Positions 25,463 to 58,807 of a stretch of DNA of 64,000 nucleotides are shown one piece after another (position 1 is the stretch's first letter; every line of letters begins with the position of its first letter). The translations under genes and the position numbers were made by a program. The notes under the pieces were generated by a model. The model saw only the letters and a list, made by a program, of their open reading frames with translations. It had not been told where the DNA came from and made no database searches. The DNA comes from an uncultured Anaerolineaceae bacterium (GTDB taxonomy: Bacteria > Chloroflexota > Anaerolineae > Anaerolineales > DRMV01), in the NCBI GenBank assembly GCA_964435005.1, contig CAYSXA010000001.1, positions 2,237-66,236 on the forward strand, written 5' to 3'.

Positions 25463-26629
25463 ATGACGGTCACCGTATTCGACGCCTGGCAGGGGAAAGA
25501 CCTCGACGAGGTGATCCACCTGTGCCGGGAGTTGTTGGAAGATATGTCCTTCCCCACCGTGCGGCGCTGGCGGGAGGCCGGTGGCAAGGTGCTGGGGCAC
25601 TTCCAGGTGTACTTCCCGGAGGAGGTCGCTCACGCGGCCGGGATGTTGCCGTTCAAGGTGCGCGGCGCGCCGGTCGAACCGATGCAGGCCGATTCGCGTT
25701 TCGGCTCCTACCTGTGTTCTATCCTGAAAACTTCGCTGGAGATCGTGCTGCGCGGCTGGGTGGAACTGGACATATTCGTCACCCACCCGATCTGTGACGC
25801 GGCCCGCAACCTGGCGGCCATCTGGGGACGCAATTTCGACTATCCCTGCGAAATCCTCTACCTGCCCCAGAACGCCAATTCCGCCTACGCGGTGGAGTAT
25901 CTGCGAGGCGAGTACGAGCGGGTGCTGCACGAGTGTGAGCGTATCACTGGCCAGCGAGTGACCGAGGATGACCTGCGGCGCTCGCTGGCGGTGTTTAACC
26001 GCAACCGCGCTTTGATCCGCCGGCTATACGAGATCAAGCGCGAACAGCCCTGGCTGCTGGCGGTGGACGAGGCCTATACCCTGATCTCCGTGGGTGGCAT
26101 GATCCCGCGCGAAGAGCATAACGCCATGCTCGAGGCCGTGATCCCGATGATTGAGGCCCGCCAGGCGCGTCCACAGGACAAAATGCGTGTGGTCTTCGAG
26201 GGTGGTTTCTGCGAGCAGCCCCCGCTGGACTTCCTGACCGTGATCGCCCGCTCCTGCTACGTGGTGGACGACGACCTGATGGTGGGGCTGCGCTGGATCA
26301 CCGAAGATGTGCCGCTGGAGGGCGATCCGCTGCTCAATCTGGCAGAGGCGTACATCGATAAATCGCTCTACAGTCCGGTGCAGCACGACGCGCGCAAGCC
26401 CAAAGAGGCCATGCTGTTGAAAAAGATGCGCGACAGCCGCGCCGGGACGGCCATCGTCGCCGCCGCCAAGATGTGCGAGCCTGGCCTGGAAGATCAGGTG
26501 GCCTATACCCATGCTCTGGACAAGGAGGGGCTGCCCTTCTTTGTCACCGAATTCGAAGAGAACATGACCAGTTTCGACCACCTGGAGATCCAACTGGAGA
26601 CCTTTGTGGAAAACCTGCTGTTTGCGTGA
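25463..26629 (+). CDS. BcrC/BadD/HgdB-family subunit of a benzoyl-CoA-reductase-like / 2-hydroxyacyl-CoA-dehydratase-like enzyme
   Basis: LSFPTVRRWREAGGKVLGHFQVYFPEEVAHAAGMLPF, a family-typical N-terminus. SD AGGAG plus ATG 25463 (ATG 25457 is an alternative). Confidence 0.8.
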   Translation: MTVTVFDAWQGKDLDEVIHLCRELLEDMSFPTVRRWREAGGKVLGHFQVYFPEEVAHAAGMLPFKVRGAPVEPMQADSRFGSYLCSILKTSLEIVLRGWVELDIFVTHPICDAARNLAAIWGRNFDYPCEILYLPQNANSAYAVEYLRGEYERVLHECERITGQRVTEDDLRRSLAVFNRNRALIRRLYEIKREQPWLLAVDEAYTLISVGGMIPREEHNAMLEAVIPMIEARQARPQDKMRVVFEGGFCEQPPLDFLTVIARSCYVVDDDLMVGLRWITEDVPLEGDPLLNLAEAYIDKSLYSPVQHDARKPKEAMLLKKMRDSRAGTAIVAAAKMCEPGLEDQVAYTHALDKEGLPFFVTEFEENMTSFDHLEIQLETFVENLLFA

Positions 26630-26641
26630 AGGAGTAGAGGC

Positions 26642-27928
26642 ATGGCGAAATCAGAAAACGGTCTGGTAGGTCGTGGCAACCGCGAGGGCGCAGCGTTGTT
26701 CCGGCAGTGGTTCGCAGATCTGACCCAACGGGCGGAGCGAAATGAGGGCGCAGCATACGTGTTCGTGATGGGCAGTATGGCCGAGATCCTGCGCGTGTTC
26801 GACCTGCCGACCGTGTTCCCCGAAATCACCTCGCTGCAAACCGCCGTGCGCCATGTGGCGCATGAGTATCTGAGCGCTGCGGAGGACTACGGTTATTCGC
26901 CGGACATCTGCGGCTACGTGAAGGCCGATATTGCATTGCAATTGCGTGGCGGCGAGCACCCCATGGGCAAGGTGCCGCGTCCCATGATTGCTGTGGCGAC
27001 TAACGCTTGCAACACCTACATCAAATGGGGTGAGGCCTGGGAGCGCATGTACAAGGCCCCGCTCTTCGTGCTGGATGTGCCTGCCACGCGGCGCGGCGGC
27101 GCGCAGACCTGGCCAGGCGATCCTGGCTTTGAGCGCGACCGCCGGTACGTGGAAGGTCAACTGCGCGAACTGATTGCCCTCTGTGAAGAAGTCACCGGCA
27201 AGAAGTTCGACATCGACCGCCTGCGCGAGATTCTGGGCTACGCCAATCGCATGAACAAGAACTGGGCACGCGTGCTGGAACTCAACCAGAGCGTGCCCAG
27301 TTTGTTCAACGCCCTGACCGACGGCACCATCTATCTGGGCGTCTCCAACGCCTTTCGCGGCACGCACGAGGGTGCGGAGTTCTTCGAGCGCCTGGTGGAG
27401 GAGATGGAGTACAAGGCCGCCAACGGCATCGGCACCCTGGTGGATGAGAAGTACCGGCTCACGTTCGTGGGTGTGCCATGTTACCCCATCTTCCGTCGCT
27501 TCAATGAACTGTTTACCGAATGGGGCGGCACGTTTGTGGTCTCTACGTATCTGATGTTCGCTTCTGGCGGGGCCAACATGGGCTTTGAATACAACCTGAA
27601 CCGCCCGCTGGAAAGCCTGGCCGAAGGTGTGTTGATCAGCGTGCGCGATGCGATGGATAGCATGTTCCACCAGGATCAGGTGGTGCTGCGCACGCTGGAT
27701 TCTTACAAGATCGACGGTGTGGTGTACCACCCGATCAAGAGTTGCCGTACCGTGTCCACTGGCCTGGCCGACGGGCGGCGCGCGCTGCTGGAATCTCGCG
27801 ACGTGCCCAGCCTGTTCATCGAATCGGACATGATGGATCGGCGGGTGGTCTCCGAAGCGCAGTTGAAGAACCGCATTGACGCCTTCTTCGAGGGGCTGGC
27901 GGCGCGCAGGGCCGCTGCGCTGGCCTGA
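26642..27928 (+). CDS. BcrB/BadE/HgdA-family subunit of the same enzyme
   Basis: 428 aa paralogous fold (..[11 protein letters not shown].., ..[10 protein letters not shown].., ..CNTYIKW.., ..[12 protein letters not shown]..), immediately downstream. Confidence 0.8.
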
Positions 27929-27948
27929 TTTCACCCAAGGAGGATTGT

Positions 27949-28755
27949 ATGGCGTACGCAGCCGGAGTGGATGTTGGTTCCACCCAAACCAAAGCCATTA
28001 TTTTAGACGAGAAACGCAACATCGTGGGGCAGGCGCTGATCGACACTGGCTCCAACGTGATGTTGGCGGCGCAGAAAGCCTTCCGCAATGCGCTGGCCTC
28101 GGCGGATATCCGCGAGGAAGAGGTCGAGTACGTGATTGGCACCGGATATGGTCGCTACCGTGTGACTTTTGGCAACACCCAGGTCACCGAGATCAGTTGC
28201 CATGCACGCGGCGCGGTGCACATGTTCCCTAACACGCGCACGGTGCTCGATATGGGCGGACAGGATACCAAAGCCATTCGGGTGAACGAAAACGGCGAAA
28301 TTCTGGATTTCTGCATGAACGACAAGTGTGCGGCGGGTACCGGGCGCTTCCTGGGCGCGGCGGCAACCGCGCTGGAGATCCCCCTGTCCGAACTTGGCCC
28401 CACTGCGCTGCATTCCGAGAAGCCGGTGCGCATCAGCACCACCTGCACTGTGTTCGCCGAGTCGGAGGTGCTTTCCTGGCTGGGTAAGGGCAAGAAGATT
28501 GAAGACATCCTGTGGGGGGTACACCTCTCCATCGCCTCGCGCTCCATCGGTCTGCTGCGCCGGGTGGGCATCGAGGAGGAGGTCACTTTCACCGGCGGCG
28601 TGGCGAAAAACAAGGGGATGGTCGCGGCGCTGGAACAGGGCCTGGGGGTGAAACTGAACGTCAATCCGCTGTCGCACTTTATGGGTGCGTTGGGCGCGGC
28701 GTTGTTCGCCCTGGATCACATCCTGCTCAGGCGACAGCCTCAGCGCTCGGCCTGA
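27949..28755 (+). CDS. BcrAD/BadFG/HgdC-type ATPase (electron-activating subunit 1)
   Basis: [17 protein letters not shown] (ASKHA N-terminus). Cluster-ligating Cys motifs [12 protein letters not shown] and [11 protein letters not shown]. Confidence 0.88.
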
Positions 28756-28776
28756 CGCCGCATCGGGAGGTTGCAG

Positions 28777-29610
28777 ATGACTTTGACCGCTGGAATAGAT
28801 GTGGGATCCACCTACACCAAAGCCGTGATCCTGGATGACGAATTTCGCATCCTGGGTAAAGCGATGACCAAAACCGGCTTTCAACTGGAAAAGGCCGCCG
28901 AGCGTGCGCTGCTGGGGGCGCTGGACGACGCCGGCGCGCACCGTTCGGATGTGGAATACCTCGTGGCTACCGGCTTTGGCCGCCACCAGGTTTCCTTCCG
29001 CGATGTGAACGTGACGGACATGACTGCCTGCGCCTGGGGCGCCACGCACCTCTTCCCGCGCACGCGCACCATCCTGGATGTGGGCGGGCAGACGATGAAG
29101 GCCATTCGCCTGGGCGACGGTCGGCGGGTGAAATCCTTCCGCCTGAACGACAAGTGCGCCGCTGGCACGGGCGCCTTCCTGGAGAAGACCGCCCGCTACA
29201 TGGGCTACACCACGGAAGAGATCGGTCCGCTGGCCTCCACTTCGAAAGAAGAAGTGCCTATCTCCGGCGTGTGCGCCGTGTTCGCCGAATCCGAGGTGAT
29301 CAATCACCTCTCGCAAGGCGCAGCGCCGGCGGACATCATGCACGGAGCGATCACCGCGCTGGTCAGCCGTTCGGTGCAGTTGATGAAGCGCGTGCGCATG
29401 GAGCCGGAAGTCACGCTGCTGGGCGGCATCCTGCGCTTCGAGACCATGGCTGGCGTGGTGCGGCAGAGCCTGAAGCTGCCGATCAACGTGCCGCCGGGCG
29501 ATATGCCGCAGTTCGTGGCCGCGATGGGCGCGGCTATCCTGGGCCAGCGGCGGCTGCGTAAGCTACGCGCCGGACAGTCGGTGGCGGCCGGAGGCGCTCA
29601 TGCCGTCTGA
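28777..29610 (+). CDS. BcrAD/BadFG/HgdC-type ATPase (electron-activating subunit 2, divergent paralogue)
   Basis: [49 protein letters not shown] plus ATG 28777 (TTG 28771 is an alternative). Confidence 0.88.
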   Translation: MTLTAGIDVGSTYTKAVILDDEFRILGKAMTKTGFQLEKAAERALLGALDDAGAHRSDVEYLVATGFGRHQVSFRDVNVTDMTACAWGATHLFPRTRTILDVGGQTMKAIRLGDGRRVKSFRLNDKCAAGTGAFLEKTARYMGYTTEEIGPLASTSKEEVPISGVCAVFAESEVINHLSQGAAPADIMHGAITALVSRSVQLMKRVRMEPEVTLLGGILRFETMAGVVRQSLKLPINVPPGDMPQFVAAMGAAILGQRRLRKLRAGQSVAAGGAHAV

Positions 29611-29851: not shown

Positions 29852-29854
29852 TCT

Positions 29855-30784
29855 TTGACAAAACAACGTCCCACCGTCCAGACTCAGTTCCTGATCTTCA
29901 CCCTGTTTGGCGACTACATTCTGCCGCGTGGAGGCGAGGTCTGGACATCCAGTTTGTTGTATCTGCTGAATTTGCTGGGCGTCAGCGAACGTGCGGCGCG
30001 ATCCACCCTTTCCCGCATGAGCCGCAAGGGGTGGGTGAAGGCCCATCGACAGGGGCGGCGCAGCCGGTATTCACTCACCGAGCGCGGGCGCGCTCTGCTC
30101 AAAAGCGGCGAGCGCCGCATCTTCGAGCCGTTGTACACGGATTGGGATGGCCGCTGGTTCGTGGTGATTTACTCCTTGCCCGAATCCATGCGCGACGCCC
30201 GTCACCAACTGCGTCAGAACCTGATCTGGCTGGGCTTTGGGGCGCTCTCGCCGGGTACCTGGATCTCGCCCCACGACCGGCGCGCCGACCTGGAGCGTTT
30301 GCTGGACGACCTGCAGGTGCGTGAGTACGTGGAGATGTTCGTCGGGCGGCATCTGGGCAACGCCAGCGACCGCGAGATGATCCGCCGATGTTGGGATCTG
30401 GACGGCCTGGTGGAGCAGTATCGTCGCTTCATCGAGCGCTACCAGCCCGAATACGAGCAGTGCGCGATGCCGGGCAACGGCGAGCCGGACATCCCGCCGG
30501 AGGTTTGCTTTGTGCGCCGTTTCTGGTTGACGCACGAGTTCCAGTCTTTCCCCCTCAAAGACCCCAACCTGCCCGTGGCGCTCCTTTCGCCGGACTGGGT
30601 GGGCTTTCGCGCCCGGCGGCTGTTCGAAGAGTACCGCGCCCTGCTGAGCACCAAAGCCAATGCCTTTGTGGATGCGGTGATGAACGGGGAGCACGAAGCC
30701 GTCCCGGCGGTGCAAACGCTGGAGGAAAACCGTCTGGAAGGTTCGTGGCGCATCAGCCCTATGGGGCCGGATGGCTCGCCCTAG
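29855..30784 (+). CDS. paaX: PaaX-family transcriptional regulator (phenylacetyl-CoA-responsive repressor family)
   Basis: QFLIFTLFGDYILPRGGEVWTSSLLYLLNLLGVSERAARSTLSRMSRKGW...RYSLTERG is characteristic of the PaaX N-terminus. TTG start after AAGAGG. Confidence 0.85.
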   Translation: MTKQRPTVQTQFLIFTLFGDYILPRGGEVWTSSLLYLLNLLGVSERAARSTLSRMSRKGWVKAHRQGRRSRYSLTERGRALLKSGERRIFEPLYTDWDGRWFVVIYSLPESMRDARHQLRQNLIWLGFGALSPGTWISPHDRRADLERLLDDLQVREYVEMFVGRHLGNASDREMIRRCWDLDGLVEQYRRFIERYQPEYEQCAMPGNGEPDIPPEVCFVRRFWLTHEFQSFPLKDPNLPVALLSPDWVGFRARRLFEEYRALLSTKANAFVDAVMNGEHEAVPAVQTLEENRLEGSWRISPMGPDGSP

Positions 30785-30796
30785 AGGAGGGGCGTT

Positions 30797-31573
30797 ATGC
30801 AGGAATCCGCACAGGCTACCTTTGTAAAGACTACGGTGGAAGACGGCTTCGCGCGGCTGACGCTGAACCGCCCACCGTTGAACGTGCTGCACATCCCCAT
30901 GTTGCAGCAACTGGATGAAGCGCTGCGCGCGCTGGCGGCGGATGATTCAGTGCGCGTGCTGGTGCTGGACGCCGAGGGAAAGATGTTCTCCGCTGGCGTG
31001 GACGTGGCCGACCACACCGAGGACAAAGTGGGCGAGATGATTCCGCTGTTCGACCGGGTGTGCCGCACGCTGGCGGATTTTCCGGTGCCGACGCTGGCGG
31101 CGGTGCACGGTCACGCGTTGGGCGGCGGCTGCGAGCTGGTGCTGTGCTGCGACCTGGCGGTGATGGTCGAGGGCGCGCGCATCGGACAGCCGGAGGTGCG
31201 CCTGGCGGCGCTGGCGCCGGTGGCGGCCCTTCGTTTGCCGTTGTTGGTGGGGTACCGTGCCGCCGCCGACCTGCTGTTCAGTGGGCGCACGCTGACCGCG
31301 CAAGAGGCGCTGGAGATCGGCCTGGTGAACGCAGTGGTGCCGCCGGAGGAGTTGAGCGGTTGGGTGGAGGGCAAAGCCGCCGGGATCGCTGCGCTCAGCC
31401 GTGCTGCGTTGCGCCTGAACAAACGCGCGCTGCGCCTGGGATACAAGGATTGGACAGCGCGCTTCCCGGAGATGGAGCGCCTCTACCTGGAGGAATTGAT
31501 GTCCACCGAGGATGCCCGTGAGGGCCTGAGCGCCTTCCTGGAGAAGCGCGAACCGGTCTGGAAACACCGTTGA
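30797..31573 (+). CDS. Enoyl-CoA hydratase/isomerase (crotonase) family protein
   Basis: LNRPPLNVL, FSAGVDV, ALGGGCELVLCCD, C-terminal EDAREGLSAFLEKREPVW. 258 aa. Confidence 0.88.
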   Translation: MQESAQATFVKTTVEDGFARLTLNRPPLNVLHIPMLQQLDEALRALAADDSVRVLVLDAEGKMFSAGVDVADHTEDKVGEMIPLFDRVCRTLADFPVPTLAAVHGHALGGGCELVLCCDLAVMVEGARIGQPEVRLAALAPVAALRLPLLVGYRAAADLLFSGRTLTAQEALEIGLVNAVVPPEELSGWVEGKAAGIAALSRAALRLNKRALRLGYKDWTARFPEMERLYLEELMSTEDAREGLSAFLEKREPVWKHR

Positions 31574-31601
31574 GGTTCCGTTCAGTTGAGGAGGAATGAT
31601 C

Positions 31602-32090
31602 ATGGCACGCGGTTTGACGTTCGACGAGTTCGAAGTCGGCGCCCGCTACATCTCGCAAGGACGCACGGTCACCGAGGCCGACGTGGTGGCCTTCGCCGGT
31701 CTGTCGGGTGACTTCAATCCCCTGCACACCAATGCCGAATTCGGACGCCAGACGCCTTTCGGGGAGCGCATCGCCCACGGTATGCTGATCGTCGCCATGG
31801 CGACCGGCATGGCGAACTGGACGGGCATCTTCGAAGGCACCACGCTTGCTCTGATGGAGCAGGTGATCCGCTACAAGGGGGCGGTGAAGTTCGGCGACAC
31901 CGTGCACCTGGAACTCGAAGTGCTGGACAAGCGCGAGACCTCTAAACCCGACCGGGGGGTGGTGCGCTTTGCCGCGCGTGTGCGCAACCAGCGTGACGAG
32001 GTGGTGGTGGACGGCGAATGGACGCTGCTCATGCGGCGGGAACGACCCAAAGAGACCGTGACCGGAGGGGAACATGTTGCTCAAGGATAA
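31602..32090 (+). CDS. MaoC-like (R)-specific enoyl-CoA hydratase / hot-dog dehydratase
   Basis: FAGLSGDFNPLHTNAEFGRQTPFGERIAHGML motif. ATG 31596 is an alternative start. Confidence 0.85.
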   Translation: MARGLTFDEFEVGARYISQGRTVTEADVVAFAGLSGDFNPLHTNAEFGRQTPFGERIAHGMLIVAMATGMANWTGIFEGTTLALMEQVIRYKGAVKFGDTVHLELEVLDKRETSKPDRGVVRFAARVRNQRDEVVVDGEWTLLMRRERPKETVTGGEHVAQG

Positions 32091-34062: not shown

Positions 34063-34069
34063 GGCACAC

Positions 34070-41531: not shown

Positions 41532-41588
41532 CCTGAATCGGTAAGGGAGGAGGGGAGCGCCTCTCTCCCCTCCTCCGGGAAACCCATT

Positions 41589-42482: not shown

Positions 42483-42492
42483 GAGCCTTGTC

Positions 42493-44773: not shown

Positions 44774-44776
44774 AGG

Positions 44777-50726: not shown

Positions 50727-52577
50727 ATGAGCCGTACAGCGATCATTGACTTATCTCGCGGCGAAGTCCGCTACACCGAAACGCCACGCGCGCTGGTGGA
50801 AGCCTACCTGGGCGGGCGCGGGTTGAACATGGCCTACCTGCGCCACTACCTGCGGCGTGCGGGCGATCCGCGCGCGGTGGACCCGCTGGGGCCGGAAAAC
50901 CCGCTGATCTTCGGCGCGGGGTTGCTCACCGGCACCATCGCGCCCAACGCGGCGCGCTTCAACGTCTCCGCTCGCTCGCCGGAAAGCGGCATCCTGGGGG
51001 ATGCGAACTGCGGCGGATTCTTTGCCGCGGCCATGCGCAAAGCTGGCTTCGACCGTCTGGTCATCCTGGGACGCGCGGATCGCCCCGTCTATCTGTTGTT
51101 GGAGGACGGTCAGGTACACATCCTGGACGCCGGTGATCTGTGGGGTACGCGCGTGATCGAAGCGCAGGCGCAACTCAAGGCCCGCCACGGTCCTGGCACG
51201 GTTTCGGCGGTCATCGGCCCGGCAGGGGAACATCAGGTGCGCATGGCGGCCATCATGACGGGCAAGAAGAACGCCGCCGGTCGTGGCGGCATGGGCGCGG
51301 TGATGGGGAGCAAGAACCTGAAAGCGGTCGTGGCGCGCGGTGGCAAGGCCATCGCCGTCGCTCAGAAAGAGACCCTGCGTCAGATCCGCATCCAGCAGCA
51401 ACAGGCGCTGAAGAAGTCCAAGGTTGTGCAGGTGCTGGGACGGGTGGGCACGCCGCTGCTTTACGAGGTCAGCAACCGGCTGGGAGCCATCCGCACCCGC
51501 AACAGCCAGGAAAACTACTTCGAGGACACGCTGAACGCCGAAGAGATCGAAAAGTACTCCGACAAGATGCTGGCCTGTACCTCGTGCGTGGTGCATTGCC
51601 GGCATCGCAACACGCTGGGCGGCGAAGGGCCGGAGTACTCCACCATCGGCCTGCTGGGGGCGAACATCGGCATTGCGCCTACCGATCAGGTGATCACGCT
51701 GAACAACCTGGTCAACGACCTGGGGCTGGATGCCTCGTCCACCGGCTCCATCCTGGGTTGGGCGATGGAACTCTACCAGCGGGGCCTGATCGACGACGAG
51801 ATGACCGAAGGCCCGCTGCTGTGGGGGGACTATGAACGGGTGTATGACCTGATTGAGGAGATCGCCTACCGGCGCGGCTTCGGCGACGTGCTGGCGGAGA
51901 GCACACAGGCAGCGCGCTTCTTCCCGCCGGAGGCGAAAGACTACCTGATTGCCGTGAAGAACCTGCCGCAATCCGACCCGCACGATGTGCGCTACTTTAA
52001 GGGCTTTGCGCTGGGTATCGCGGTTGCCAGCCGGGGCGCGGATCACCTGCGCAACCGCCCCACGCTGGAGGTCTTCAAGCTGCCGGACGAGGTACGCGCC
52101 AGCATCTACGGTCGCGTGAACGACCCCGACCCCACCGGTTACAGGGACAAGGGCCTGATTGTGGCCTGGAGCGATGACATCTTCGCCGTGACCGATTGCC
52201 TGGGCATCTGCAAGTTCGTCACGCGTGGCTTCAACAGTCCGCACCTGCTGGGCTACCAGGAGTTCTGCGATCTGATCGAGGCAGCCACCGGTCTACACTA
52301 CACGCCAGAGACGCTGCGAGCCGTCGGGCGGCGGGTGCTGGACACCGAACGGATGATCAACGCGGATTTTGGCCTCAGCCGTGCAGACGACACGCTGCCT
52401 AAACGGTACTTCGACGACCCGATACCAGCCCGCAAGACCAAAGGTCATCATGTAGACCGCGAGCAGTTCCAGCGCATGTTGGACGAGTATTACGCCGAAC
52501 GCGGCTGGGATGCGGAAGGGCGCGTGCCGGCGGGTCGCCAGGCGGGGATCGATGCGTTGATTGCCCAGTTGGGATAA
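50727..52577 (+). CDS. aor: Tungsten-type aldehyde:ferredoxin oxidoreductase (AOR family)
   Basis: N-terminal ..EAYLGGRGLNMAYL.., [4Fe-4S] ligands CTSCVVHC plus DCLGICKF. 616 aa. Confidence 0.9.
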   Translation: MSRTAIIDLSRGEVRYTETPRALVEAYLGGRGLNMAYLRHYLRRAGDPRAVDPLGPENPLIFGAGLLTGTIAPNAARFNVSARSPESGILGDANCGGFFAAAMRKAGFDRLVILGRADRPVYLLLEDGQVHILDAGDLWGTRVIEAQAQLKARHGPGTVSAVIGPAGEHQVRMAAIMTGKKNAAGRGGMGAVMGSKNLKAVVARGGKAIAVAQKETLRQIRIQQQQALKKSKVVQVLGRVGTPLLYEVSNRLGAIRTRNSQENYFEDTLNAEEIEKYSDKMLACTSCVVHCRHRNTLGGEGPEYSTIGLLGANIGIAPTDQVITLNNLVNDLGLDASSTGSILGWAMELYQRGLIDDEMTEGPLLWGDYERVYDLIEEIAYRRGFGDVLAESTQAARFFPPEAKDYLIAVKNLPQSDPHDVRYFKGFALGIAVASRGADHLRNRPTLEVFKLPDEVRASIYGRVNDPDPTGYRDKGLIVAWSDDIFAVTDCLGICKFVTRGFNSPHLLGYQEFCDLIEAATGLHYTPETLRAVGRRVLDTERMINADFGLSRADDTLPKRYFDDPIPARKTKGHHVDREQFQRMLDEYYAERGWDAEGRVPAGRQAGIDALIAQLG

Positions 52578-52673: not shown

Positions 52674-53963
52674 ATGGGAATGACGTTGGCCGAAAAGATC
52701 CTGGCCGCGCACAGCGGCAAAACCGAGGTGCACGCCGGGGAGTTCGTGAACGCCAAAGTGGATCTGGTGCTGGCGTCCGAACTGTCCGGTGTGGTCGCCA
52801 TCGATGCCTTTCGCAAGATCAAAGGCGCGCGGGTGTTCGACCCGCAGAAAGTGGTCTTTGTGATGGATCATTTCACTCCCAACAAAGACATCAAGAGCGC
52901 CGAGATCGTGAAAAAGTGCCGCGAGTTCGCCCAGGAGACCGGTATCCGTCTGTACGATGTGGGACGGGCGGGCATTCAGCACGTGCTGCTGCCGGAGCAA
53001 GGGCTGGTCTCGCCGGGGGACATCATTGCCGGCGCGGACTCGCACACCTGCACTTACGGCGCGCTGGGGGCGCTGGGCACCGGCATCGGGTCCACCGACG
53101 CGGCGGCAGCCATGGCGCTTGGCGAGTTATGGTTCAAAGTACCGGAGACCATCAAAGTCGTCTACCATGGACGCCCGCGCCCTGGCGTGGTGGGCAAGGA
53201 CATCATTCTGCATACCATCAAGGTCGTCGGCGTGGCGGGCGCGCGCTACATGGCGATTGAGTACAGCGGGGAGGCGGTCGGGTATCTGCAAATGAGCGAC
53301 CGTCTGACCATGGCAAACATGGCGATCGAAGCCGGTGCGATGGCCGGGCTGTTTCAGGCCGACGAGGTTACGATGGCGTTCTTGCAGCGCGCGGGTGCGC
53401 GCCCCGGCGTGGCCTATCGGCCCGATCCGGATGCACATTATGCCCGCGTGGTGGACATTGACCTTTCCGACCTGGAGCCGCAGGTGGCCGTGCCCTATCT
53501 GCCAGAGAACAGCGTGCCGGTTTCCGAGGTGGCGGGGCTGGAGATCCATCAGGTGGTGATCGGGATGTGCACCAACGGCACGCTGGACGATCTGCGACAG
53601 GCGGCGGCAGTGCTGCGCGGGCGCAAGATCCATCCGCGCGTGCGAGCCATCATCATCCCCGGAACGCCCCAGGTGTACCGCGACGCATTGAAAGAGGGAC
53701 TGGTGGACATCTTCATGGACGCCGAGTGTGTGGTCAGTATGAGCACTTGTGGGCCGTGCCTGGGCGGGCACATGGGCGTGCTGGCCGCCGGGGAGCGGTG
53801 CGTGTCCACCAGCAACCGCAACTTCCGCGGACGGATGGGGCACATGCAGTCGGAAGTGTACCTCGCCAGTCCCGCGGTGGCGGCAGCTTCCGCCGTGGCA
53901 GGTTGCATTGCCTCGCCGGAGGACATCGGCGTTTCACCGGACGTAGTACGGGTGTATGTGTAG
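52674..53963 (+). CDS. Aconitase-family dehydratase large subunit (LeuC/HacA-type, archaeal-style about 420 aa)
   Basis: MTLAEKILAAHSGK, DHFTPN, GADSHTCTYGALGA, cluster Cys GMCTNG and CGPCLG, STSNRNFRGRMG. Confidence 0.88.
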   Translation: MGMTLAEKILAAHSGKTEVHAGEFVNAKVDLVLASELSGVVAIDAFRKIKGARVFDPQKVVFVMDHFTPNKDIKSAEIVKKCREFAQETGIRLYDVGRAGIQHVLLPEQGLVSPGDIIAGADSHTCTYGALGALGTGIGSTDAAAAMALGELWFKVPETIKVVYHGRPRPGVVGKDIILHTIKVVGVAGARYMAIEYSGEAVGYLQMSDRLTMANMAIEAGAMAGLFQADEVTMAFLQRAGARPGVAYRPDPDAHYARVVDIDLSDLEPQVAVPYLPENSVPVSEVAGLEIHQVVIGMCTNGTLDDLRQAAAVLRGRKIHPRVRAIIIPGTPQVYRDALKEGLVDIFMDAECVVSMSTCGPCLGGHMGVLAAGERCVSTSNRNFRGRMGHMQSEVYLASPAVAAASAVAGCIASPEDIGVSPDVVRVYV

Positions 53964-54022
53964 CGCACCTGTAACTTGCACTCGATTCACCATGAGAAGC
54001 AGAGGTATTTGAGGAATTTGAG

Positions 54023-54418
54023 GTGTCGGAGGAGGAGCGGCTGCGGGCGGATCCCTTCGCCCAATCGCTGGGAGCGGAGTTGCTGAGCGTGCATCCTGGT
54101 GTGGCCAAGGCGGCCATCACGGTGTGCGAGGGACATTGCAACGTGCTCGGCTGGCCGCACGGCGGGATGATCTTTACCCTGGCGGACTACGCCTTCGCGG
54201 CGGCCTGCAACGCCGGAAACCCGCCCACCGTGGCGGTGCACATGGATATGACCTTTCTCACCCCGGCGCGAATCGGCGAGCGGTTGGAGGCCGAGGCCGT
54301 GCGGCGCGGTGGTCAGGGACGCACTCATCTCTATCGCCTGAGCGTGTACGGCGAAGACCGCCGCCTGATCGCCGAAGGGTATGGACTGGCAAGGACGTTG
54401 AAGGAGACGGAGGCATGA
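54023..54418 (+). CDS. paaI: PaaI/PaaD-type hot-dog thioesterase
   Basis: DPFAQSLGAELLSVHPG.A......CNVLGWPHGGMIFTLADYAFAAAC. GTG start. 131 aa. Confidence 0.8.
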   Translation: MSEEERLRADPFAQSLGAELLSVHPGVAKAAITVCEGHCNVLGWPHGGMIFTLADYAFAAACNAGNPPTVAVHMDMTFLTPARIGERLEAEAVRRGGQGRTHLYRLSVYGEDRRLIAEGYGLARTLKETEA

Positions 54419-55965
54419 GTTTCACCCATTTCTATCACACCACCCTGGGCGAGTTGCTGACCACCCAGGCCCGCATCCACGGCAAGCGTCCCTACCTGCG
54501 CCTGGGCGAACGCACCTGGACGTATGCTCAGGCGGAGGAGGCCGCGATCTCCCTGGCCGGGGCGCTGATCGACCTGGGGCTGCGTCCGGGCGACCGGGTG
54601 GCCGTGATGCTGCCCAACCTGCCGGAGTACGTGATCACCCTGTTCGCGGCAGCAAAGGCGGATCTGTTGCTGGTGCCGATCAACTTACGCCGCCATCCAG
54701 GCGAGGTGCGCGCCCGGTTCGAACGCACCCGCCCAAAAGCAGTGGTCACATTTTCTCAACCGGAAGAGTTCTGGGGCGTGGATCACCTGGAGATGGTGCG
54801 CACCATGCAGCCCGATTTGCCCTTCCTGGAGCATATCATTGCGCTGGAGGGCGGCGATGGCGTGCTGGACTGGGCTGCGCTCTGTGAACACGACGGCCCG
54901 CCCCCGCTGGCAGACGTCCGTCCACAGGACGCGGCGGCCATTGTTCACACGCTGGGGAGCGTCGGTACGCCGCGCGGCGCAGTGCTCACCCACGGCGGAT
55001 TGGTGCGCAACGCCGCTGACATCGCCGCCAACCTGGCCTGCACCGAGGCGGATGTCTTCCTGGGGGCGGTGCCGTTCTCCAACACTTTTGGTCTCACTCC
55101 TACCATCCTGTCCTGCACCGTGGCCGGCGCGCAACTGGTCTGCCTTCCGCGCTACCGGGCGGGGGAGGCGCTGCGGCTGATCCGTGAGGTGGGCGTCACC
55201 GTACATCACGGCGTGCCCACCATGTTTGCGATGGAACTGAACCACCCCGATTTCCGCCCGCAAGACTACGCCACGCTGCGAACCGGCATCATGTCTGGCG
55301 CGCCCTGTCCGCCAGAACTGGTGCGCCGCGTGCGCGAGCAGATGGATATCGCGCTGGTGCTGGCCTATGGCCTGACGGAAGCCTCGCCGTCGGTTGCCAT
55401 GACGCGCCTGGACGATGGCCCAATCACCGCCACCGAGACCGTGGGGCGCCCGATGCCGGACGTGGAGGTCAGGGTGGTGGACGAGCGCGGGCAGCCCCTG
55501 CCGCCCGGTCAGGAAGGCGAACTGTGCGTGCGCGGTTACAACGTGATGCGCGGCTACTGGCAGGACGACCGCGCGACCGCCGAGGTGTTGGACGCGGACG
55601 GCTGGCTGCACACCGGCGATCTGGCAGTGATCGACCCCGATGGCCCTATTCGCATTCTGGGGCGCAAGGACGAGGTGATCAACCGGGGCGGCTTCAAAGT
55701 CCATCCTGCGCCAGTGGAGATGGTCTTGCGGTCTCACCCTGGCGTGAAGGAGGCTGCCGTGGTTGGTGTGCCGGATGCCATCTACGGCCAACTCCCGGTG
55801 GCCTGCGTGGTACCTGGCCCGGGAGCCGATCTGGACGCAGACATGCTTCTGGCCTACGCTGCCGAACACCTGAGCGAAGATGCGTTGCCCTCGCGGGTGG
55901 TCTTCTTCGATGTGCTGCCGCGCCGTCCCAGCGGGGCGGTAGACAAGGCCTATCTGAGCGAGCGC
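54415..55965 (+). CDS. AMP-dependent acyl-CoA synthetase/ligase (ANL) domain; no in-frame stop, so the ORF continues into the LeuD-like domain (to 56466)
   Basis: ATGA overlap with paaI. ANL motifs AYGLTEASP, WLHTGDLAV, ILGRKDEVINRGGFKV. Atypical A3 (HTLGSVGTPRGA) and A10 (PRRPSGAVDK) motifs. Confidence 0.8.
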
Positions 55966-56466
55966 GTGCGCCTGCGCGGGCGGGCCTGGAAGTTCGGCGC
56001 CAACGTGGATACCGATGCCATCATCCCCGCCCGGCATTGCAACACCGCCGATCCGCGCGAACTGGCGCAGCACTGCATGGAAGATGCCGACCCCGAATTC
56101 GTGCACAAGATGCGGCGCGGCGACCTGATCGTGGCTGATGAGAACTTCGGTTGCGGTAGTTCTCGCGAGGTGGCTCCCATCACCATCAAGGCTGCCGGCG
56201 TGAGCGCGGTGATCGCCAAATCCTTCGCCCGCATCTTCTTCCGCAATGCGATCAACATCGGCTTGCCTATCCTGGAATGTCCTGAAGCGGTGGACGGCAT
56301 CCAGGAGGGCGACGAGATCGAGGTAGAACCCGCTACCGGCATCATCCGCAACCTGACGCGGGGTGAGACCTATCAGGCCGCCCCCTTCCCGGACTTCTTG
56401 CGGCAAATCATCGACCGGGGCGGTTTGCTGGCCTACGTTCAAGACCGTCTGGCAGGAAAGGTGTAA
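55966..56466 (+). CDS. Aconitase-family dehydratase small subunit (LeuD/HacB-type), encoded in frame with the preceding ligase
   Basis: (V)RLRGRAWKFGANVDTDAIIPAR..., ENFGCGSSREVAPITIKAAGVSAVIAKSFARIFFRNAINIGLP. A possible internal GTG at 55966, but there is no stop upstream. Confidence 0.8.
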   Translation: MRLRGRAWKFGANVDTDAIIPARHCNTADPRELAQHCMEDADPEFVHKMRRGDLIVADENFGCGSSREVAPITIKAAGVSAVIAKSFARIFFRNAINIGLPILECPEAVDGIQEGDEIEVEPATGIIRNLTRGETYQAAPFPDFLRQIIDRGGLLAYVQDRLAGKV

Positions 56467-56467
56467 C

Positions 56468-57616
56468 ATGGTTGATTTTTCACTCTCCGATGAACAAAAG
56501 TTCATGCGCGAACTGGCGCACAAGTTCGCCGAGAAGGAGATCCGTCCCATCGCGGCGGAATATGACGAACGGGAAGAAGTGCCCTGGGAGGTGATCAAGA
56601 AAGCTGCACAGGCCGGCTTCCTCTCCTACTACATCCCGGAGGAGTACGGCGGGGGTGGCGTGACCGACCTGCTGACCCACGTGCTAGTGGATGAGGAACT
56701 CTTCTGGGGCTGTGCTGGGGTGGGAACCATCCTGGGCGGCACCAGCCTGTGCGTCACACCGATTCTGATCGCCGGCACGGAGGAGCAGAAGCAAAAGTAC
56801 CTGTCCCTGTTCTGCGACCCGGAGCATCCGCGCCTGGGTGCGTTCGCGCTCACCGAGCCGTCCGCCGGCTCCGATCCGGCTAGCATGTCTACCCACGCGG
56901 TGCGCGAGGGCGATTACTACATCATCAACGGCTACAAGACATTTATCACCAATGGCGGCATTGCCGACCTGTATGTGGTGTTCGCCACCGTAGACCCCAG
57001 TTTAGGGCATCGCGGCATCACCGCGTTCATCGTGGAGAAGGACACGCCGGGCCTGGTGCCGGGGAAGAAAGAGAAGAAGATGGGCATCCGCGCCTCGCAC
57101 ACTGCCCAGCTGGCCTTCGAGAACATGCGTGTGCCGGTCTCCAACCGGTTGGGTGCGGAGGGCGATGGCTTCACGATTGCCATGAAGACGTTTGAGATCA
57201 CGCGCGTCCACGTCGCCATCGGTGCAGTGGGTATCGCGCGCGCGGCCTTCGAGTATGCCCGCGATTACGCCAACGAACGTGTGCAATTTGGCAAGCCAAT
57301 CATCCAGCACGAGGCGGTTGGTTTCATGCTGGCGGATATGGCAATGCAGATCGAGGCCGCGCGATTGCTGTGCTGGCAGGCCGCCTGGCTGCACGACCAG
57401 GGGAAGACGAATACCTACTATGCCAGCATGGCGAAAGCGTTCGCGGCGGACATGGCGATGAAAGTCACCACCGATGCGGTGCAGGTGTTAGGCGGGTACG
57501 GCTATATCCGCGAGTATCCGGTCGAAAAGTGGATGCGCGACGCCAAAATCGTCCAGGTGTACGAAGGGACATCCCAGATTCAGCGGCTGATCATCTCCCG
57601 CCATCTGATGCAGTGA
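56468..57616 (+). CDS. Acyl-CoA dehydrogenase
   Basis: FSLSDEQKFMRELAHKFAEKEIRPIAAEYDE, FALTEPSAGSD, C-terminal QVYEGTSQIQRLIISR. 382 aa. Confidence 0.9.
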   Translation: MVDFSLSDEQKFMRELAHKFAEKEIRPIAAEYDEREEVPWEVIKKAAQAGFLSYYIPEEYGGGGVTDLLTHVLVDEELFWGCAGVGTILGGTSLCVTPILIAGTEEQKQKYLSLFCDPEHPRLGAFALTEPSAGSDPASMSTHAVREGDYYIINGYKTFITNGGIADLYVVFATVDPSLGHRGITAFIVEKDTPGLVPGKKEKKMGIRASHTAQLAFENMRVPVSNRLGAEGDGFTIAMKTFEITRVHVAIGAVGIARAAFEYARDYANERVQFGKPIIQHEAVGFMLADMAMQIEAARLLCWQAAWLHDQGKTNTYYASMAKAFAADMAMKVTTDAVQVLGGYGYIREYPVEKWMRDAKIVQVYEGTSQIQRLIISRHLMQ

Positions 57617-57640
57617 CAGGCCCTCTCCTCTCCCCCCGCT

Positions 57641-57679
57641 TCCCCCCTCCCCTCTCCCAATGGGAGAGGGGAGGGGGGA
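57641..57679. repeat. GC-rich palindromic intergenic element, second copy (19-bp perfect arms)
   Basis: TCCCCCCTCCCCTCTCCCA (57641-57659), A, TGGGAGAGGGGAGGGGGGA (57661-57679). Same CCTCTCCCA/TGGGAGAGG core as 52609-52627, followed by a similar GGGGTGAGGG tail. Confidence 0.85.
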
Positions 57680-57724
57680 AATGAAGGGGGGCGGGGTGAG
57701 GGAGACCACCAGTGAGGAGGAAGC

Positions 57725-58807
57725 ATGAAAACCTATAACATCGGCGTCATCCCCGGCGACGGCATTGGCCCTGAAGTGGCTGCTGAGGGCCTTAAGGTGC
57801 TGCGCACCGTGATGGAAATCGAGGGCTTCGACTGCAACCTGGTCGAGTACCCGTACTCCGGTGAGTATTACCTGAAGACCAAAGAACTGGTTCCTGAGCG
57901 GGTGATCGACGAGTGGCGCACGCTAGACGCGGTTTTCCTGGGCGCCATCGGGCATCCGGATGTGGAGCCGGGGCTGGTGGAGCGGTCGGTCATTCTGGGA
58001 CTGCGCTTCGGGCTGGATCTGTACATCAACCTGCGTCCGGTCAAACTGTATGCCCCGCACCTCACCCCGCTGAAGGACAAGCAGCCGGAGGATATGGACT
58101 TCGTGGTGGTGCGCGAAAACACCGAGGGGTTGTACGCCCAAATTGGCGGTTTCTTAAAAAAGAACACGCCGGACGAAGTGTCCACCGTGATCGGGGTGTA
58201 CACCCGCAAGGGGGTGGAGCGCGCGGTGCGCTATGCATACGACCTAGCTCGCCGCCGCAAGCAGGAACTCGGAAAACCCGGTCGCCTGACGCTGGTGGAC
58301 AAGGCCAACGCGGTGCGCCCACACGACATCTGGACACGCGCCTTCGCCGAGGTTGGCGAGGAGTATCCCGATGTGGAACAGGATCACGCTTATGTGGACG
58401 CCTGCACCATGTGGATGGTGAAGAACCCGGAGTGGTTTGACGTGATCGTGACCACCAACCTGTTCGGTGACATCATCACCGATCTGGGCGCTGCGCTGAC
58501 CGGCGGGATGGGCATCGCAGCGTCAGGCAATCTGCACCCCGGCAAGACCTCGATGTTCGAGCCGATTCACGGCTCTGCGCCCAAGTACGCCGGCAAGAAC
58601 GTGGCCTGTCCGCTGGGGGCGATTCTGGCGGTCAGTATGATGCTGGAATATTTGGGCGAGAAGCGGGCTGCCACGCTGATCGAAAACGCGATCAGTGACC
58701 TGATGGTGAGCGGCGCCATCCCATCCGCAACCACACGCAGCGGCCTGAGCACCACTCAACAGGGAGACATGGTGGTGGAAGCCATTCGCAAGCAGGTGGA
58801 TGGGTAG
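57725..58807 (+). CDS. Isopropylmalate/isocitrate dehydrogenase-family beta-decarboxylating dehydrogenase (closest by eye to tartrate/D-malate dehydrogenase TtuC type)
   Basis: IGVIPGDGIGPEV, VRENTEGLY, NLFGDIITDLGAAL.GG.GIAAS.N, EPIHGSAPKYAGK. 360 aa. Confidence 0.85.
   Translation: MKTYNIGVIPGDGIGPEVAAEGLKVLRTVMEIEGFDCNLVEYPYSGEYYLKTKELVPERVIDEWRTLDAVFLGAIGHPDVEPGLVERSVILGLRFGLDLYINLRPVKLYAPHLTPLKDKQPEDMDFVVVRENTEGLYAQIGGFLKKNTPDEVSTVIGVYTRKGVERAVRYAYDLARRRKQELGKPGRLTLVDKANAVRPHDIWTRAFAEVGEEYPDVEQDHAYVDACTMWMVKNPEWFDVIVTTNLFGDIITDLGAALTGGMGIAASGNLHPGKTSMFEPIHGSAPKYAGKNVACPLGAILAVSMMLEYLGEKRAATLIENAISDLMVSGAIPSATTRSGLSTTQQGDMVVEAIRKQVDG

Follow-up and report, generated by a model that had tools for sequence, protein, structure and literature searches.

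Positions 25463–58807 of the DNA analysed here, a 64,000-nucleotide window from contig CAYSXA010000001.1 of an uncultured Anaerolineaceae bacterium, form one aromatic-acid catabolic supercluster of about 33 kb in which every gene lies on the + strand. Judged from its sequence families, the cluster joins an aryl-CoA reductase of the MbdNOQP type, Dch-like and Had-like enzymes of ring degradation, a PaaX-family regulator, two copies each of IorAB and PaaK, an aldehyde:ferredoxin oxidoreductase (AOR), a PaaI-like protein and an ABC importer whose binding protein resembles aromatic-acid binders. Embedded among these genes is what synteny, a gene fusion and pocket residues indicate to be a dedicated 2-oxoacid chain-elongation module, consisting of a LeuA-like synthase, LeuC, an acyl-CoA synthetase fused to LeuD (ACS::LeuD) and LeuB. 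We tentatively propose, at a little under even confidence, that this module lengthens phenylpyruvate by one carbon and that the side chain is then beta-oxidised to benzoyl-CoA.

Open reading frames were taken from a six-frame listing and translated, and families were assigned by Pfam and NCBIfam profile scans, with NCBIfam scores judged against the model cut-offs. Scores of structural relatives are bits against Protein Data Bank (PDB) chains, and L-numbers denote loci of relatives that were compared with the window. The scans bore out, in essence, the gene inventory and coordinates of the original prediction for this DNA, including its co-directional, tightly packed layout. That inventory had omitted a YbgC-type thioesterase, a Zn-dependent alcohol dehydrogenase (Zn-ADH), an Amidohydro_2 protein, a ThiS/MoaD-like protein and the acyl-CoA synthetase (ACS), and had named PaaI without coordinates. 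Over the 16 kb that could be compared, the window matches a JGI metagenome contig without a difference. The nearest relatives of the proteins come from metagenome-assembled genomes (MAGs) of Anaerolineae or Anaerolineales. The module and the enzymes that would act directly after it are as follows.

36478–38226, + strand: IorA copy 1, candidate 2-oxo-4-arylbutyrate:ferredoxin oxidoreductase (TIGR03336)
38239–38829, + strand: IorB copy 1 (PF01558; NF005322 226, cut-off 237)
38840–40132, + strand: LeuA-like 2-alkylmalate synthase, candidate 2-benzylmalate synthase (PF00682)
52674–53963, + strand: LeuC-type isomerase large subunit (TIGR02083)
54415–56466, + strand: ACS::LeuD fusion, with ACS as residues 1–517 and LeuD at 55966–56466 (PF00501, PF13193, PF00694)
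56468–57616, + strand: acyl-CoA dehydrogenase (ACAD), MCAD/Bcd-like by PDB matches, candidate 3-phenylpropionyl-CoA dehydrogenase
57725–58807, + strand: LeuB-type beta-decarboxylating dehydrogenase (NF002898)

The LeuA-like protein has 430 aa and carries PF00682 (HMGL-like) alone, with no LeuA_dimer domain. Score and pocket set it apart from the isopropylmalate, homocitrate and citramalate synthases. It scores 213 on the isopropylmalate synthase (IPMS) model (cut-off 517), 187 on the homocitrate synthase (HCS) model TIGR02146 (cut-off 414) and 96 on the CimA model TIGR00977 (cut-off 450), and even the best PDB relatives share only about 30% identity with it. Of the condensation machinery, R35, D36, E168, H230, H232 and H323 are kept, as seen by alignment with Neisseria meningitidis LeuA and Thermus thermophilus HCS. 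Five specificity positions and their reference residues were taken from Table 1 of PMC12961565, and the column mapping was checked by alignment. At these positions the window protein has A100/M164/V166/C194/H254, where HphA, the synthase of the homophenylalanine (Hph) pathway, has A/D/A/M/S, IPMS has L/E/S/N/E and HCS has H/R/T/S/H (PMC12961565). A100 falls in the alignment column of IPMS Leu81 and HCS His72, the one that holds A73 in HphA; in T. thermophilus HCS the residues opposite A100, M164 and V166 are H72, R133 and S135. In HphA, A73 is the main specificity determinant, and the A73L substitution raises activity on 2-oxoisovalerate 17-fold (PMC12961565). Because the specificity residues are A/M/V/C/H, with Ala at the HphA A73 position, the pocket is predicted to be larger and hydrophobic; it would fit a bulky non-polar 2-oxoacid and not 2-oxoisovalerate, pyruvate, 2-oxoglutarate or oxaloacetate. 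All 82 family members compared, from several phyla, have A100, M164, V166 and H254, and 76 of them have C194.

Two other identities for the synthase were rejected. A homocitrate synthase of the alpha-aminoadipate (AAA) lysine pathway, a citramalate synthase or a Re-citrate synthase is ruled out by the scores and by the lack of an Arg/His for a distal carboxylate; no lysW/X/Y/Z-type genes were seen. An HMG-CoA-lyase-like enzyme, which the RDGLQ motif and a neighbouring enoyl-CoA hydratase (ECH) might bring to mind, is ruled out by the GxGERxGN motif, the distal catalytic His and a score of 31 bits on the HMG-CoA lyase model.

An exhaustive representative search placed the protein in a clade that comprises 627 clusters when grouped at 50% identity (E <= 1e-30). 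RDGLQ and a small residue at position 100 are conserved in most full-length members, and AMVCH is the commonest single signature. One Gemmatimonadota MAG (CAZZKG01) holds two LeuA-like paralogues in a single genome (L031 and L039), 59–60% identical to the query, one standing alone and the other in a LeuB-LeuC-LeuD-ECH-LeuA-like operon. Matches at 55–78% identity also occur on contigs binned as Rhodobacteraceae, Patescibacteria and Bifidobacteriaceae (L019, L025 and L057), labels that look mis-binned.

The second specialised feature of the module is its isomerase small subunit. The original prediction had listed a complete but dispersed LeuA/LeuC/LeuD/LeuB-type set. All four are present, and LeuD (55966–56466) proves to be not a gene of its own; it is the C-terminal domain of the 54415–56466 fusion. 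The ACS reading frame runs into LeuD with no stop codon and essentially no linker, and the same is seen in L013, L014 and L021. All 120 of the 120 best ACS::LeuD homologues (62–86% identity, 670–713 aa) contain AMP-binding, AMP-binding_C and Aconitase_C domains. An assembly artefact is ruled out, since four divergent loci and each of these 120 proteins keep the fusion in frame. For the ACS domain the nearest matches are feruloyl-CoA synthetase (250 bits) and 4-coumarate-CoA ligases (217–234 bits). In L003 (14131–14487; CP070688.1, the one complete genome among the loci compared), a LeuA-like-LeuC-ACS series follows ATP synthase genes; a run of N past the ACS hides whether LeuD is fused there, and a truncated N-terminal fragment of AOR lies about 8 kb upstream.

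The specificity loop of the LeuD domain reads PARHCNT. The corresponding loops are PARYLVY in MJ1277, the isopropylmalate/citramalate isomerase small subunit of Methanocaldococcus jannaschii and the closest relative of this domain (196 bits, about 60% identity), PGPYLRT in a homoaconitase small subunit and PGRYNLT in the Pyrococcus horikoshii protein. The three closest solved homologues of the short LeuD type have Tyr at the first loop position (YL, YL and YN), and four bacterial-type LeuD chains also matched, with the loop position not covered by the alignment or reading F-L (Q-F-L). PAR[H/R]C is present in 120 of 120 fusion proteins. L023 and the Gemmatimonadota LeuB-LeuC-LeuD-ECH-LeuA-like clusters, whose LeuD is a separate gene, have the (H/R)-C pair as well. 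The smaller residues in the synthase pocket and in the isomerase loop would both point to a bulkier substrate.

Gene order ties the module to enzymes that act on 2-oxoacids and acyl-CoA esters. Anaerolineae loci whose synthase is 69–84% identical share a recurrent order, PaaX-(Oah-like)-ECH-MaoC-SDR-thiolase-thioesterase-ADH-Amidohydro_2-IorA-IorB-LeuA-like in the first half (SDR, short-chain dehydrogenase/reductase; ADH, alcohol dehydrogenase), and then [optional importer/IorA2B2/PaaK block]-ThiS-AOR-LeuC-ACS::LeuD-(ACAD)-LeuB. IorB lies directly 5' of the LeuA-like gene in 17 of the 18 evaluable Anaerolineae loci. The first IorAB copy is the one tied to the synthase, and the second travels with the importer and PaaK. 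The original prediction had given the 2-oxo-4-phenylbutyrate step to the second copy, and this assignment has to be exchanged for copy 1. A minimal version in L023 reads PaaX-IorA-IorB-LeuA-like-LeuC-LeuD-ACAD-LeuB, which is exactly steps 1–5 of the proposed route, from condensation to ACAD, plus the regulator.

Other phyla present the same association in different forms. Dormibacterota have an E1alpha-E1beta-E2-LeuA-like operon, encoding a 2-oxoacid dehydrogenase complex of the branched-chain type. Two Acidobacteriota have ECH-BcrCBAD-GNAT-TPR-LeuA-like, the LeuA-like gene standing in reductase operons at L078 and L084. The LeuA-like gene adjoins IorAB in L029, and a Sysuimicrobiota MAG has ACS-ECH-ACAD-LeuC-LeuD-PaaK-LeuA-like-IorAB. 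In L091, LeuC-PaaI-ACS::LeuD-ACAD-LeuB comes directly after the aerobic ring-cleavage genes HpaB, flavin reductase, extradiol dioxygenase, hydrolase and aldehyde dehydrogenase. An enzyme converting a 2-oxoacid to an acyl-CoA recurs as the partner, and aromatic catabolism recurs as the theme. The comparison of genomes, which the original prediction had suggested as a check, supports a functional linkage of the Leu-like genes with IorAB, ACAD and PaaX, and in other phyla with E1/E2, IorAB and benzoyl-CoA reductase. Three unrelated loci (L023 9062–10779, L029 11243–12771 and L084 11860–14442) carry XdhC/MobA-like maturation genes or a molybdenum subunit of the xanthine dehydrogenase family beside the LeuA-like gene or Leu module, and these genes may point to a step of the 4-hydroxybenzoyl-CoA-reductase type.

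The cluster opens with a reductase for the aromatic ring. This enzyme and the candidate ring-pathway genes are as follows.

25463–26629, + strand: aryl-CoA reductase gamma subunit, MbdN-like (PF06050)
26642–27928, + strand: aryl-CoA reductase beta subunit, MbdO-like (PF06050)
27949–28755, + strand: reductase ATPase alpha subunit, MbdQ-like (PF01869)
28777–29610, + strand: reductase ATPase delta subunit, MbdP-like (PF01869)
30797–31573, + strand: crotonase, candidate Dch, alternatively cinnamoyl-CoA hydratase (best NCBIfam model TIGR03189)
34549–35571, + strand: Zn-ADH, candidate Had (best NCBIfam model TIGR03201)
35568–36446, + strand: Amidohydro_2 protein (PF04909)

Four adjacent genes encode two PF06050 and two PF01869 proteins, and the two ATPases share 44% identity. 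The gamma subunit matches MbdN (PDB 9G87_B) with 548 bits, a HadC-type subunit of 2-hydroxyisocaproyl-CoA dehydratase with 121 and BzdN with 86. The beta subunit matches MbdO (PDB 9G87_A) with 532 bits, HadB with 115 and BzdO with 101. The alpha ATPase matches MbdQ (PDB 9GAI_D) with 424 bits and the delta ATPase MbdP (PDB 9GAI_C) with 307 bits; activators of dehydratases score 156–245 bits against the reductase ATPase subunits. On this evidence the four genes specify a class I, ATP-dependent aryl-CoA reductase of the MbdNOQP type, a genuine benzoyl-CoA reductase whose activity is predicted. A 2-hydroxyacyl-CoA (aryllactyl-CoA) dehydratase is ruled out, because the match to MbdNOQP is far above that to HadBC/HgdC and there are two distinct ATPase subunits. 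The benzoyl-CoA-reductase-like enzyme named in the original prediction accordingly groups with MbdNOQP (307–548 bits) and not with dehydratases or their activators (115–245). All four subunits are matched one to one by the 3-methylbenzoyl-CoA reductase MbdONQP (PDB 9G87 / 9GAI); the difference is that the window lacks the accompanying Oah-like hydrolase.

Homologues of the reductase in Anaerolineae and Acidobacteriota (75–79% identity) adjoin an Oah-like ECH, a Dch-like ECH and a Had-like Zn-ADH. The window crotonase scores 186 on TIGR03189 (Dch; cut-off 292) and is 46% identical to the ECH beside Had in the reductase cluster of L086. The Zn-ADH scores 259 on TIGR03201 (Had, 6-hydroxycyclohex-1-ene-1-carbonyl-CoA dehydrogenase; cut-off 339) and is 70% identical to the ADH in L086. 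Both proteins would fit the ring pathway, as cyclohexa-1,5-diene-1-carbonyl-CoA hydratase (Dch) and Had, better than side-chain beta-oxidation. The original prediction had placed the crotonase in side-chain hydration; it looks instead like the Dch of the ring pathway, with the omitted Zn-ADH as Had. The trio of Dch, Had and Oah beside the reductase is incomplete, with only the Dch-like and Had-like members present and both below their cut-offs. In at least eight syntenic relatives, an Oah-like crotonase of about 345–360 aa (TIGR03200, ~222 bits) stands between PaaX and the Dch-like ECH. It was seen in L004–L015 (L004 393–1430; L013, L014) and in L086 (7418–8500).

The Amidohydro_2 protein might be an alternative ring hydrolase. 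It has no NCBIfam match and only an uncharacterised PDB relative, and it is conserved in the cluster among relatives. A weak homologue adjoins an Mbd-type reductase in L087 (6767–7642), a Blastocatellia MAG without ECH. In the window its reading frame begins 4 nt before Had ends, an instance of translational coupling. Hemerythrin genes also recur in these surroundings, both beside Mbd-type reductases and within the Leu-like block of relatives (L086 13568–14101, L087 13003–13566, L090 21667–22067 and L091 12127–12666); the hemerythrins may serve oxygen or redox sensing or protection.

The remaining features of the cluster include its regulator, side-chain enzymes, importer and flanking signals.

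25375–25402, + strand: sigma-70-like promoter candidate 5' of the reductase genes (TTGACA-16-TATACT, 11/12 matches, a consensus match only)
29855–30784, + strand: PaaX-family repressor with all three PaaX Pfam domains
31596–32090, + strand: MaoC (R)-specific enoyl-CoA hydratase, a candidate enzyme of side-chain beta-oxidation (PF01575)
32074–32841, + strand: SDR, FabG-like, candidate 3-hydroxyacyl-CoA dehydrogenase (PF13561/PF00106)
32854–34062, + strand: divergent thiolase, candidate benzoylacetyl-CoA thiolase (Thiolase_N 75 bits, Thiolase_C 69 bits)
34070–34525, + strand: YbgC/4HBT-type acyl-CoA thioesterase (PF13279; TIGR00051 73.7, above cut-off)
40269–41531, + strand: solute-binding protein of an ABC importer (PF13458)
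41589–43509, + strand: permeases LivH (41589–42482) and LivM (42493–43509) (PF02653)
43496–44773, + strand: PaaK-like arylacetate-CoA ligase, copy 1, inside the importer block (TIGR02155 404, cut-off 646)
44783–45625, + strand: LivG ATPase (PF00005, PF12399)
45618–48200, + strand: LivF ATPase and IorA copy 2 in a single frame, IorA2 from near 46419 (ABC_tran, TIGR03336)
48405–49013, + strand: IorB copy 2 (PF01558)
49085–50404, + strand: PaaK copy 2, phenylacetate-CoA ligase-like (TIGR02155 560, cut-off 646)
50404–50697, + strand: ThiS/MoaD-like small protein (PF02597)
50727–52577, + strand: tungsten-type AOR (PF02730, PF01314)
54023–54418, + strand: PaaI-like hotdog thioesterase (TIGR02286 106, cut-off 119)
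58862–58886, + strand: terminator-like hairpin closing the cluster (11-bp stem with 8 G-C pairs, then a T-run)

The ACAD is closest to the Thermus ACAD of PDB 1UKW (427 bits) and to MCAD, the medium-chain acyl-CoA dehydrogenase (382), ahead of isovaleryl-CoA dehydrogenase (240–272) and glutaryl-CoA dehydrogenase (255). MCAD is the classic 3-phenylpropionyl-CoA dehydrogenase. PaaX scores 244 on TIGR02277 (cut-off 265), and characterised regulators of its family sense phenylacetyl-CoA. Both IorA copies exceed the TIGR03336 cut-off of 651 (IorA1 668, IorA2 717) and both have a PF01558 partner. The thiolase scores 173 on TIGR01930 (cut-off 241). MaoC is present in most clusters with the LeuA-like gene and IorAB and is absent from the reductase-only clusters L086–L088, and the ThiS/MoaD-like gene is always upstream of AOR in syntenic loci. 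The binding protein has its best PDB matches in 4DQD/3SG0 (129 bits) and CouP 4JB0/3TX6 (108), compared with 45–72 for Leu/Ile/Val binders, and it resembles aromatic-acid binders of the Rhodopseudomonas type. For CouP, cinnamates and 4-hydroxyphenylpyruvate are ligands of nanomolar affinity (PMC3610893). The similarities of ACS, ACAD and binding protein are modest and mutually consistent.

The interval behaves as one or a few co-directional transcription units, because of its tight packing, the promoter-like site upstream and a sole convincing + strand terminator-like hairpin after LeuB. From PaaX through the LeuA-like gene, intergenic gaps are at most 31 nt and several genes overlap, and the PaaI stop codon shares an ATGA with the ACS start. 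The promoter-like site and the hairpin flank the interval almost exactly. No + strand terminator-like site was found between genes before 58862, the two that were found lying inside the Had and IorA1 coding sequences, and no riboswitch or leader matched Rfam at gathering thresholds. The Liv-type importer block spans 40269–46340 and IorA/IorB copy 2 about 46419–49013. There is no stop codon between LivF and IorA2, and a GGAG-ATG start for IorA2 is internal to the frame. Relatives separate the two genes, with a stop codon in L006 and with different frames in L004, L008, L015 and L022. The joint frame is peculiar to this lineage and reflects either the loss of a stop codon or a sequencing error.

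In the proposed pathway, the observed family identities, fusion, pocket and loop residues and synteny are read as a sequence of reactions, and every substrate and the direction of flux are inferred from that reading. As substrate the module would accept a 2-oxoacid that is bulky and hydrophobic, with phenylpyruvate or 4-hydroxyphenylpyruvate as the likeliest candidates. The LeuA-like synthase would condense the arylpyruvate with acetyl-CoA to 2-benzylmalate, LeuC and ACS::LeuD would isomerise this product, and LeuB would decarboxylate it oxidatively to 2-oxo-4-phenylbutyrate. IorA1B1 could then form 3-phenylpropionyl-CoA, which the MCAD-like ACAD would oxidise to cinnamoyl-CoA, and MaoC, SDR and thiolase would convert cinnamoyl-CoA to benzoyl-CoA and acetyl-CoA. 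Dearomatisation of benzoyl-CoA would fall to the Mbd-type reductase. A probable task of the fused ACS is to activate free 3-arylpropionate or cinnamate for entry into this beta-oxidation, and IorA2B2, PaaK and the importer would handle arylpyruvate and arylacetate.

A wider version of this proposal, which we regard as doubtful, is that many Anaerolineae, and other phyla in varied forms, degrade aromatic amino acids and phenylacetate through a homologation bypass. PaaK would form phenylacetyl-CoA, which IorA2B2 would reductively carboxylate to phenylpyruvate for elongation by the LeuA-like protein, LeuC, ACS::LeuD and LeuB. Oxidative decarboxylation by IorA1B1 would give 3-phenylpropionyl-CoA and repay the ferredoxin electrons of the IorA2B2 step, with beta-oxidation again leading to benzoyl-CoA.

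Several observations weigh against aromatic homologation. Comparison of the site at 30784–30797 with relatives showed that the window lacks an Oah-like ring hydrolase; ring opening must therefore depend on a hydrolase encoded elsewhere or on a replacement. The cluster contains no aminotransferase or electron-transfer flavoprotein (ETF) genes. The MaoC-SDR-thiolase triad is missing from the syntenic loci L012, L017 and L023, and the proposed route gives no rigorous account of AOR/ThiS, the ACS, Amidohydro_2 and both thioesterases. The synthase shares only one of the five specificity residues, the Ala, with HphA. In most Acidobacteriota loci the LeuA-like gene lies among unrelated housekeeping neighbours (peptidases, LpxA, DnaB, XerC), which makes a family-wide aromatic role uncertain. 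Finally, LeuC passes the leucine-pathway equivalog TIGR02083 (621.5, cut-off 610.7), LeuB passes the equivalog NF002898 (429.5, cut-off 393), a score from which specificity is not readable, and the LeuD domain falls just below TIGR02084 (243.5, cut-off 245.9). The Leu-like proteins that the original prediction had enlisted for homologation divide, the LeuA-like protein standing far below the synthase cut-offs and LeuC and LeuB passing those for leucine. Overall, the homologate-then-beta-oxidise route is strengthened by synteny, fusion and pocket and loop residues, with the ordinary LeuC and LeuB scores and the missing Oah as its weak points.

The leucine-type scores of LeuC, LeuB and LeuD are the main evidence for the view that the four Leu-like genes are the leucine (or citramalate/isoleucine) biosynthesis genes of this lineage, carried in an aromatic island by descent and with no part in aromatic homologation. 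LeuD comes within 3 bits of its cut-off and shares its ~60% identity with the isopropylmalate/citramalate isomerase of M. jannaschii, many Acidobacteriota have a stand-alone LeuA-like gene amid housekeeping genes, and some loci place it beside LeuB or LeuCD only. However, the synthase has the A/M/V/C/H pocket and not the conserved L/E/S/N/E of IPMS, lacks the regulatory domain and reaches less than half the IPMS cut-off. LeuD has an (H/R)-C loop in every fusion protein and is fused to ACS, a compact operon led by PaaX contains IorAB and ACAD, and associations with E1/E2, IorAB, benzoyl-CoA reductase and ring-cleavage genes recur in unrelated arrangements. There are also no cultured Anaerolineae among the 80 best genome matches to the LeuA-like protein. 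We consider this explanation unlikely. Far less probable, in our estimate, is a purely anabolic scheme in which the iorAB, paaK and importer genes reductively carboxylate scavenged arylacetates or branched-chain acids, the Leu genes finish leucine and the reductase block is unrelated. PaaK and IorAB do serve arylacetate assimilation in some anaerobes, and both IorA copies pass the indolepyruvate:ferredoxin oxidoreductase (IOR) equivalog cut-off. This scheme leaves ACAD, thioesterases and beta-oxidation genes without a role. The whole interval is tightly packed and free of terminators, and the compact L023 operon contains ACAD; the pocket and loop arguments made against housekeeping leucine genes apply here as well.

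Two further explanations accept a specialised module and change its substrate or its chemistry. A Leu-like module might take part in aromatic metabolism by other reactions, which we think quite unlikely. In one variant, phenylacetyl-CoA would act as nucleophile on glyoxylate, a LeuCD-type hydroxyl shift and cleavage would give phenylglyoxylate, and IorAB would produce benzoyl-CoA, amounting to a redox-neutral alpha-oxidation; in the other, the module would make homo-aromatic amino acids anabolically. The context evidence is the same as for homologation, PaaX-family regulators are generally known to sense phenylacetyl-CoA, and the ACS::LeuD fusion and PaaI hint that CoA esters are handled near the isomerase. 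Against this, LeuB is conserved in the module and would be superfluous for the phenylglyoxylate scheme, no nonribosomal peptide synthetase (NRPS) or other secondary-metabolite genes lie nearby in the window, and such chemistry is not known to have a precedent in this enzyme family. Decidedly unlikely, in our view, is that the same logic of elongation, decarboxylation and beta-oxidation serves an aliphatic substrate, with the aromatic co-location secondary. An example would be the conversion of leucine-derived 2-oxoisocaproate to 4-methylvaleryl-CoA, bypassing the biotin-dependent methylcrotonyl-CoA carboxylase. The pocket is hydrophobic yet not demonstrably aromatic, the Dormibacterota operon pairs the LeuA-like gene with a branched-chain-type E1/E2 complex, the family is widespread in aerobic soil phyla without aromatic context, and ECH is its commonest conserved neighbour (8 loci). 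What speaks for an aromatic substrate instead is the dense context of PaaX, Mbd-type reductase, PaaK, PaaI, CouP-like binder and feruloyl/4-coumarate-ligase-like ACS, together with the reductase operons of L078 and L084 that contain the LeuA-like gene, the L091 module that follows aromatic ring-cleavage genes, and an ACAD nearer MCAD than isovaleryl-CoA dehydrogenase.

Aromatic homologation, the reading we prefer, would be a new combination built from known kinds of enzyme, and its nearest known counterparts are found in the anabolic Hph pathway and in the degradation of phenylpropanoate by beta-oxidation. The Hph pathway of Nostoc punctiforme (HphA/HphCD/HphB) is likewise a one-carbon elongation of the LeuABCD type, taking phenylpyruvate or 4-hydroxyphenylpyruvate via 2-/3-benzylmalate to 2-oxo-4-phenylbutyrate, and its synthase has the same key Ala (HphA A73, window A100). 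The other four pocket residues differ (D157/A159/M186/S242 in HphA, M/V/C/H in the window), a comparison made by published residues only. Hph is anabolic, supplies NRPS building blocks and ends in transamination, whereas the window module sits with IorAB, ACAD, beta-oxidation genes, benzoyl-CoA reductase and PaaX, and its LeuD is fused to an acyl-CoA synthetase. Leucine biosynthesis by LeuA/LeuCD/LeuB has the same enzyme families and reaction order, with LeuC and LeuB above their equivalog cut-offs; it differs in that the window synthase lacks the IPMS pocket, regulatory domain and score and has catabolic gene partners, and that the window LeuD has (H/R)-C in place of Y-L in its loop and is joined to ACS. 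Plant methionine chain elongation, with methylthioalkylmalate (MAM) synthase and specialised isopropylmalate isomerase (IPMI) small subunits, also combines a LeuA-derived synthase lacking the regulatory domain with a specialised small subunit for a larger substrate, but is anabolic and eukaryotic and has no coupling to a 2-oxoacid:ferredoxin oxidoreductase or beta-oxidation.

The established anaerobic route from phenylalanine or phenylacetate to benzoyl-CoA is the alpha-oxidation of phenylacetyl-CoA by Pad enzymes. The Pad pathway of denitrifiers (PadJ, PadBCD, PadEFGHI) fulfils the same task as the proposed route, and differs in its alpha-oxidation to phenylglyoxylate by a molybdenum enzyme. 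No PadBCD or PadEFGHI is encoded within the window, the best PadE score being 29 bits for IorB1 against a cut-off of 300. That nothing Pad-like is present had been noted in the original prediction and holds: the Mo/FeS/NrfD genes at 1688–6031, and with ActD the series at 1688–6576, belong to alternative complex III and not to Pad. A beta-oxidative route from 3-phenylpropanoate or cinnamate to benzoyl-CoA is known in Aromatoleum aromaticum EbN1, Rhodopseudomonas palustris and Desulfococcus multivorans (PMC5109826). It uses CoA ligase, ACAD, hydratase, dehydrogenase and thiolase before ring reduction, and the window has a candidate for each. The difference is that the known route imports its C6-C3 acid ready-made, whereas in our proposal the cell would obtain this CoA ester by passing a C6-C3 2-oxoacid through the Leu-like module and IorAB to the C6-C3 level again, one carbon being lost and two gained. 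A full-text literature search found no catabolic route through benzylmalate or 2-oxo-4-phenylbutyrate, in agreement with the original prediction that such a pathway had not been described.

The genes around the cluster add some context on the organism. Upstream, 662–7085 and 10320–12665 encode multihaem ActA-like, molybdenum-type ActB, NrfD/ActC, ActD and cytochrome c proteins and a large multi-cytochrome-c protein. Alternative complex III and cytochromes suggest respiratory capacity in a genome that also carries an oxygen-sensitive reductase, and because they are encoded there the organism need not be a strict anaerobe. A mevalonate-pathway block (HMG-CoA reductase, an HMG-CoA-synthase-like protein and a thiolase) occupies 17046–20602, also upstream. 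A family I CoA-transferase subunit at 24237–25187 on the - strand is divergent from the reductase promoter region, with no clear partner subunit adjoining. Directly past the terminator, 58947–61015 encodes biotin carboxylase and a biotinyl-carrier protein; the window contains no carboxyltransferase close to them.

The finding bears on a gap in anaerobic metabolism, namely how phenylalanine, phenylpyruvate and phenylacetate reach benzoyl-CoA without Pad enzymes. PadB and PadEFGHI are missing from strict anaerobes such as D. multivorans, and the step from phenylacetyl-CoA to benzoyl-CoA has been called unclear in D. multivorans and Desulfobacula toluolica (PMC5109826). If the proposal is true, it would represent a new metabolic logic, in which two carbons are added and one is lost to make a non-beta-oxidisable side chain beta-oxidisable. 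The bypass would take the place of Pad-type alpha-oxidation without requiring an electron acceptor of high potential. The LeuA-like clade, large and uncharacterised, would then consist of alkylmalate synthases that act on bulky substrates in catabolism, and the widespread ACS::LeuD fusion would be assigned a role. Calls of leuA, leuC, leuD and leuB in Chloroflexota and Acidobacteriota MAGs would then have to be re-read in predictions of auxotrophy and of pathways.

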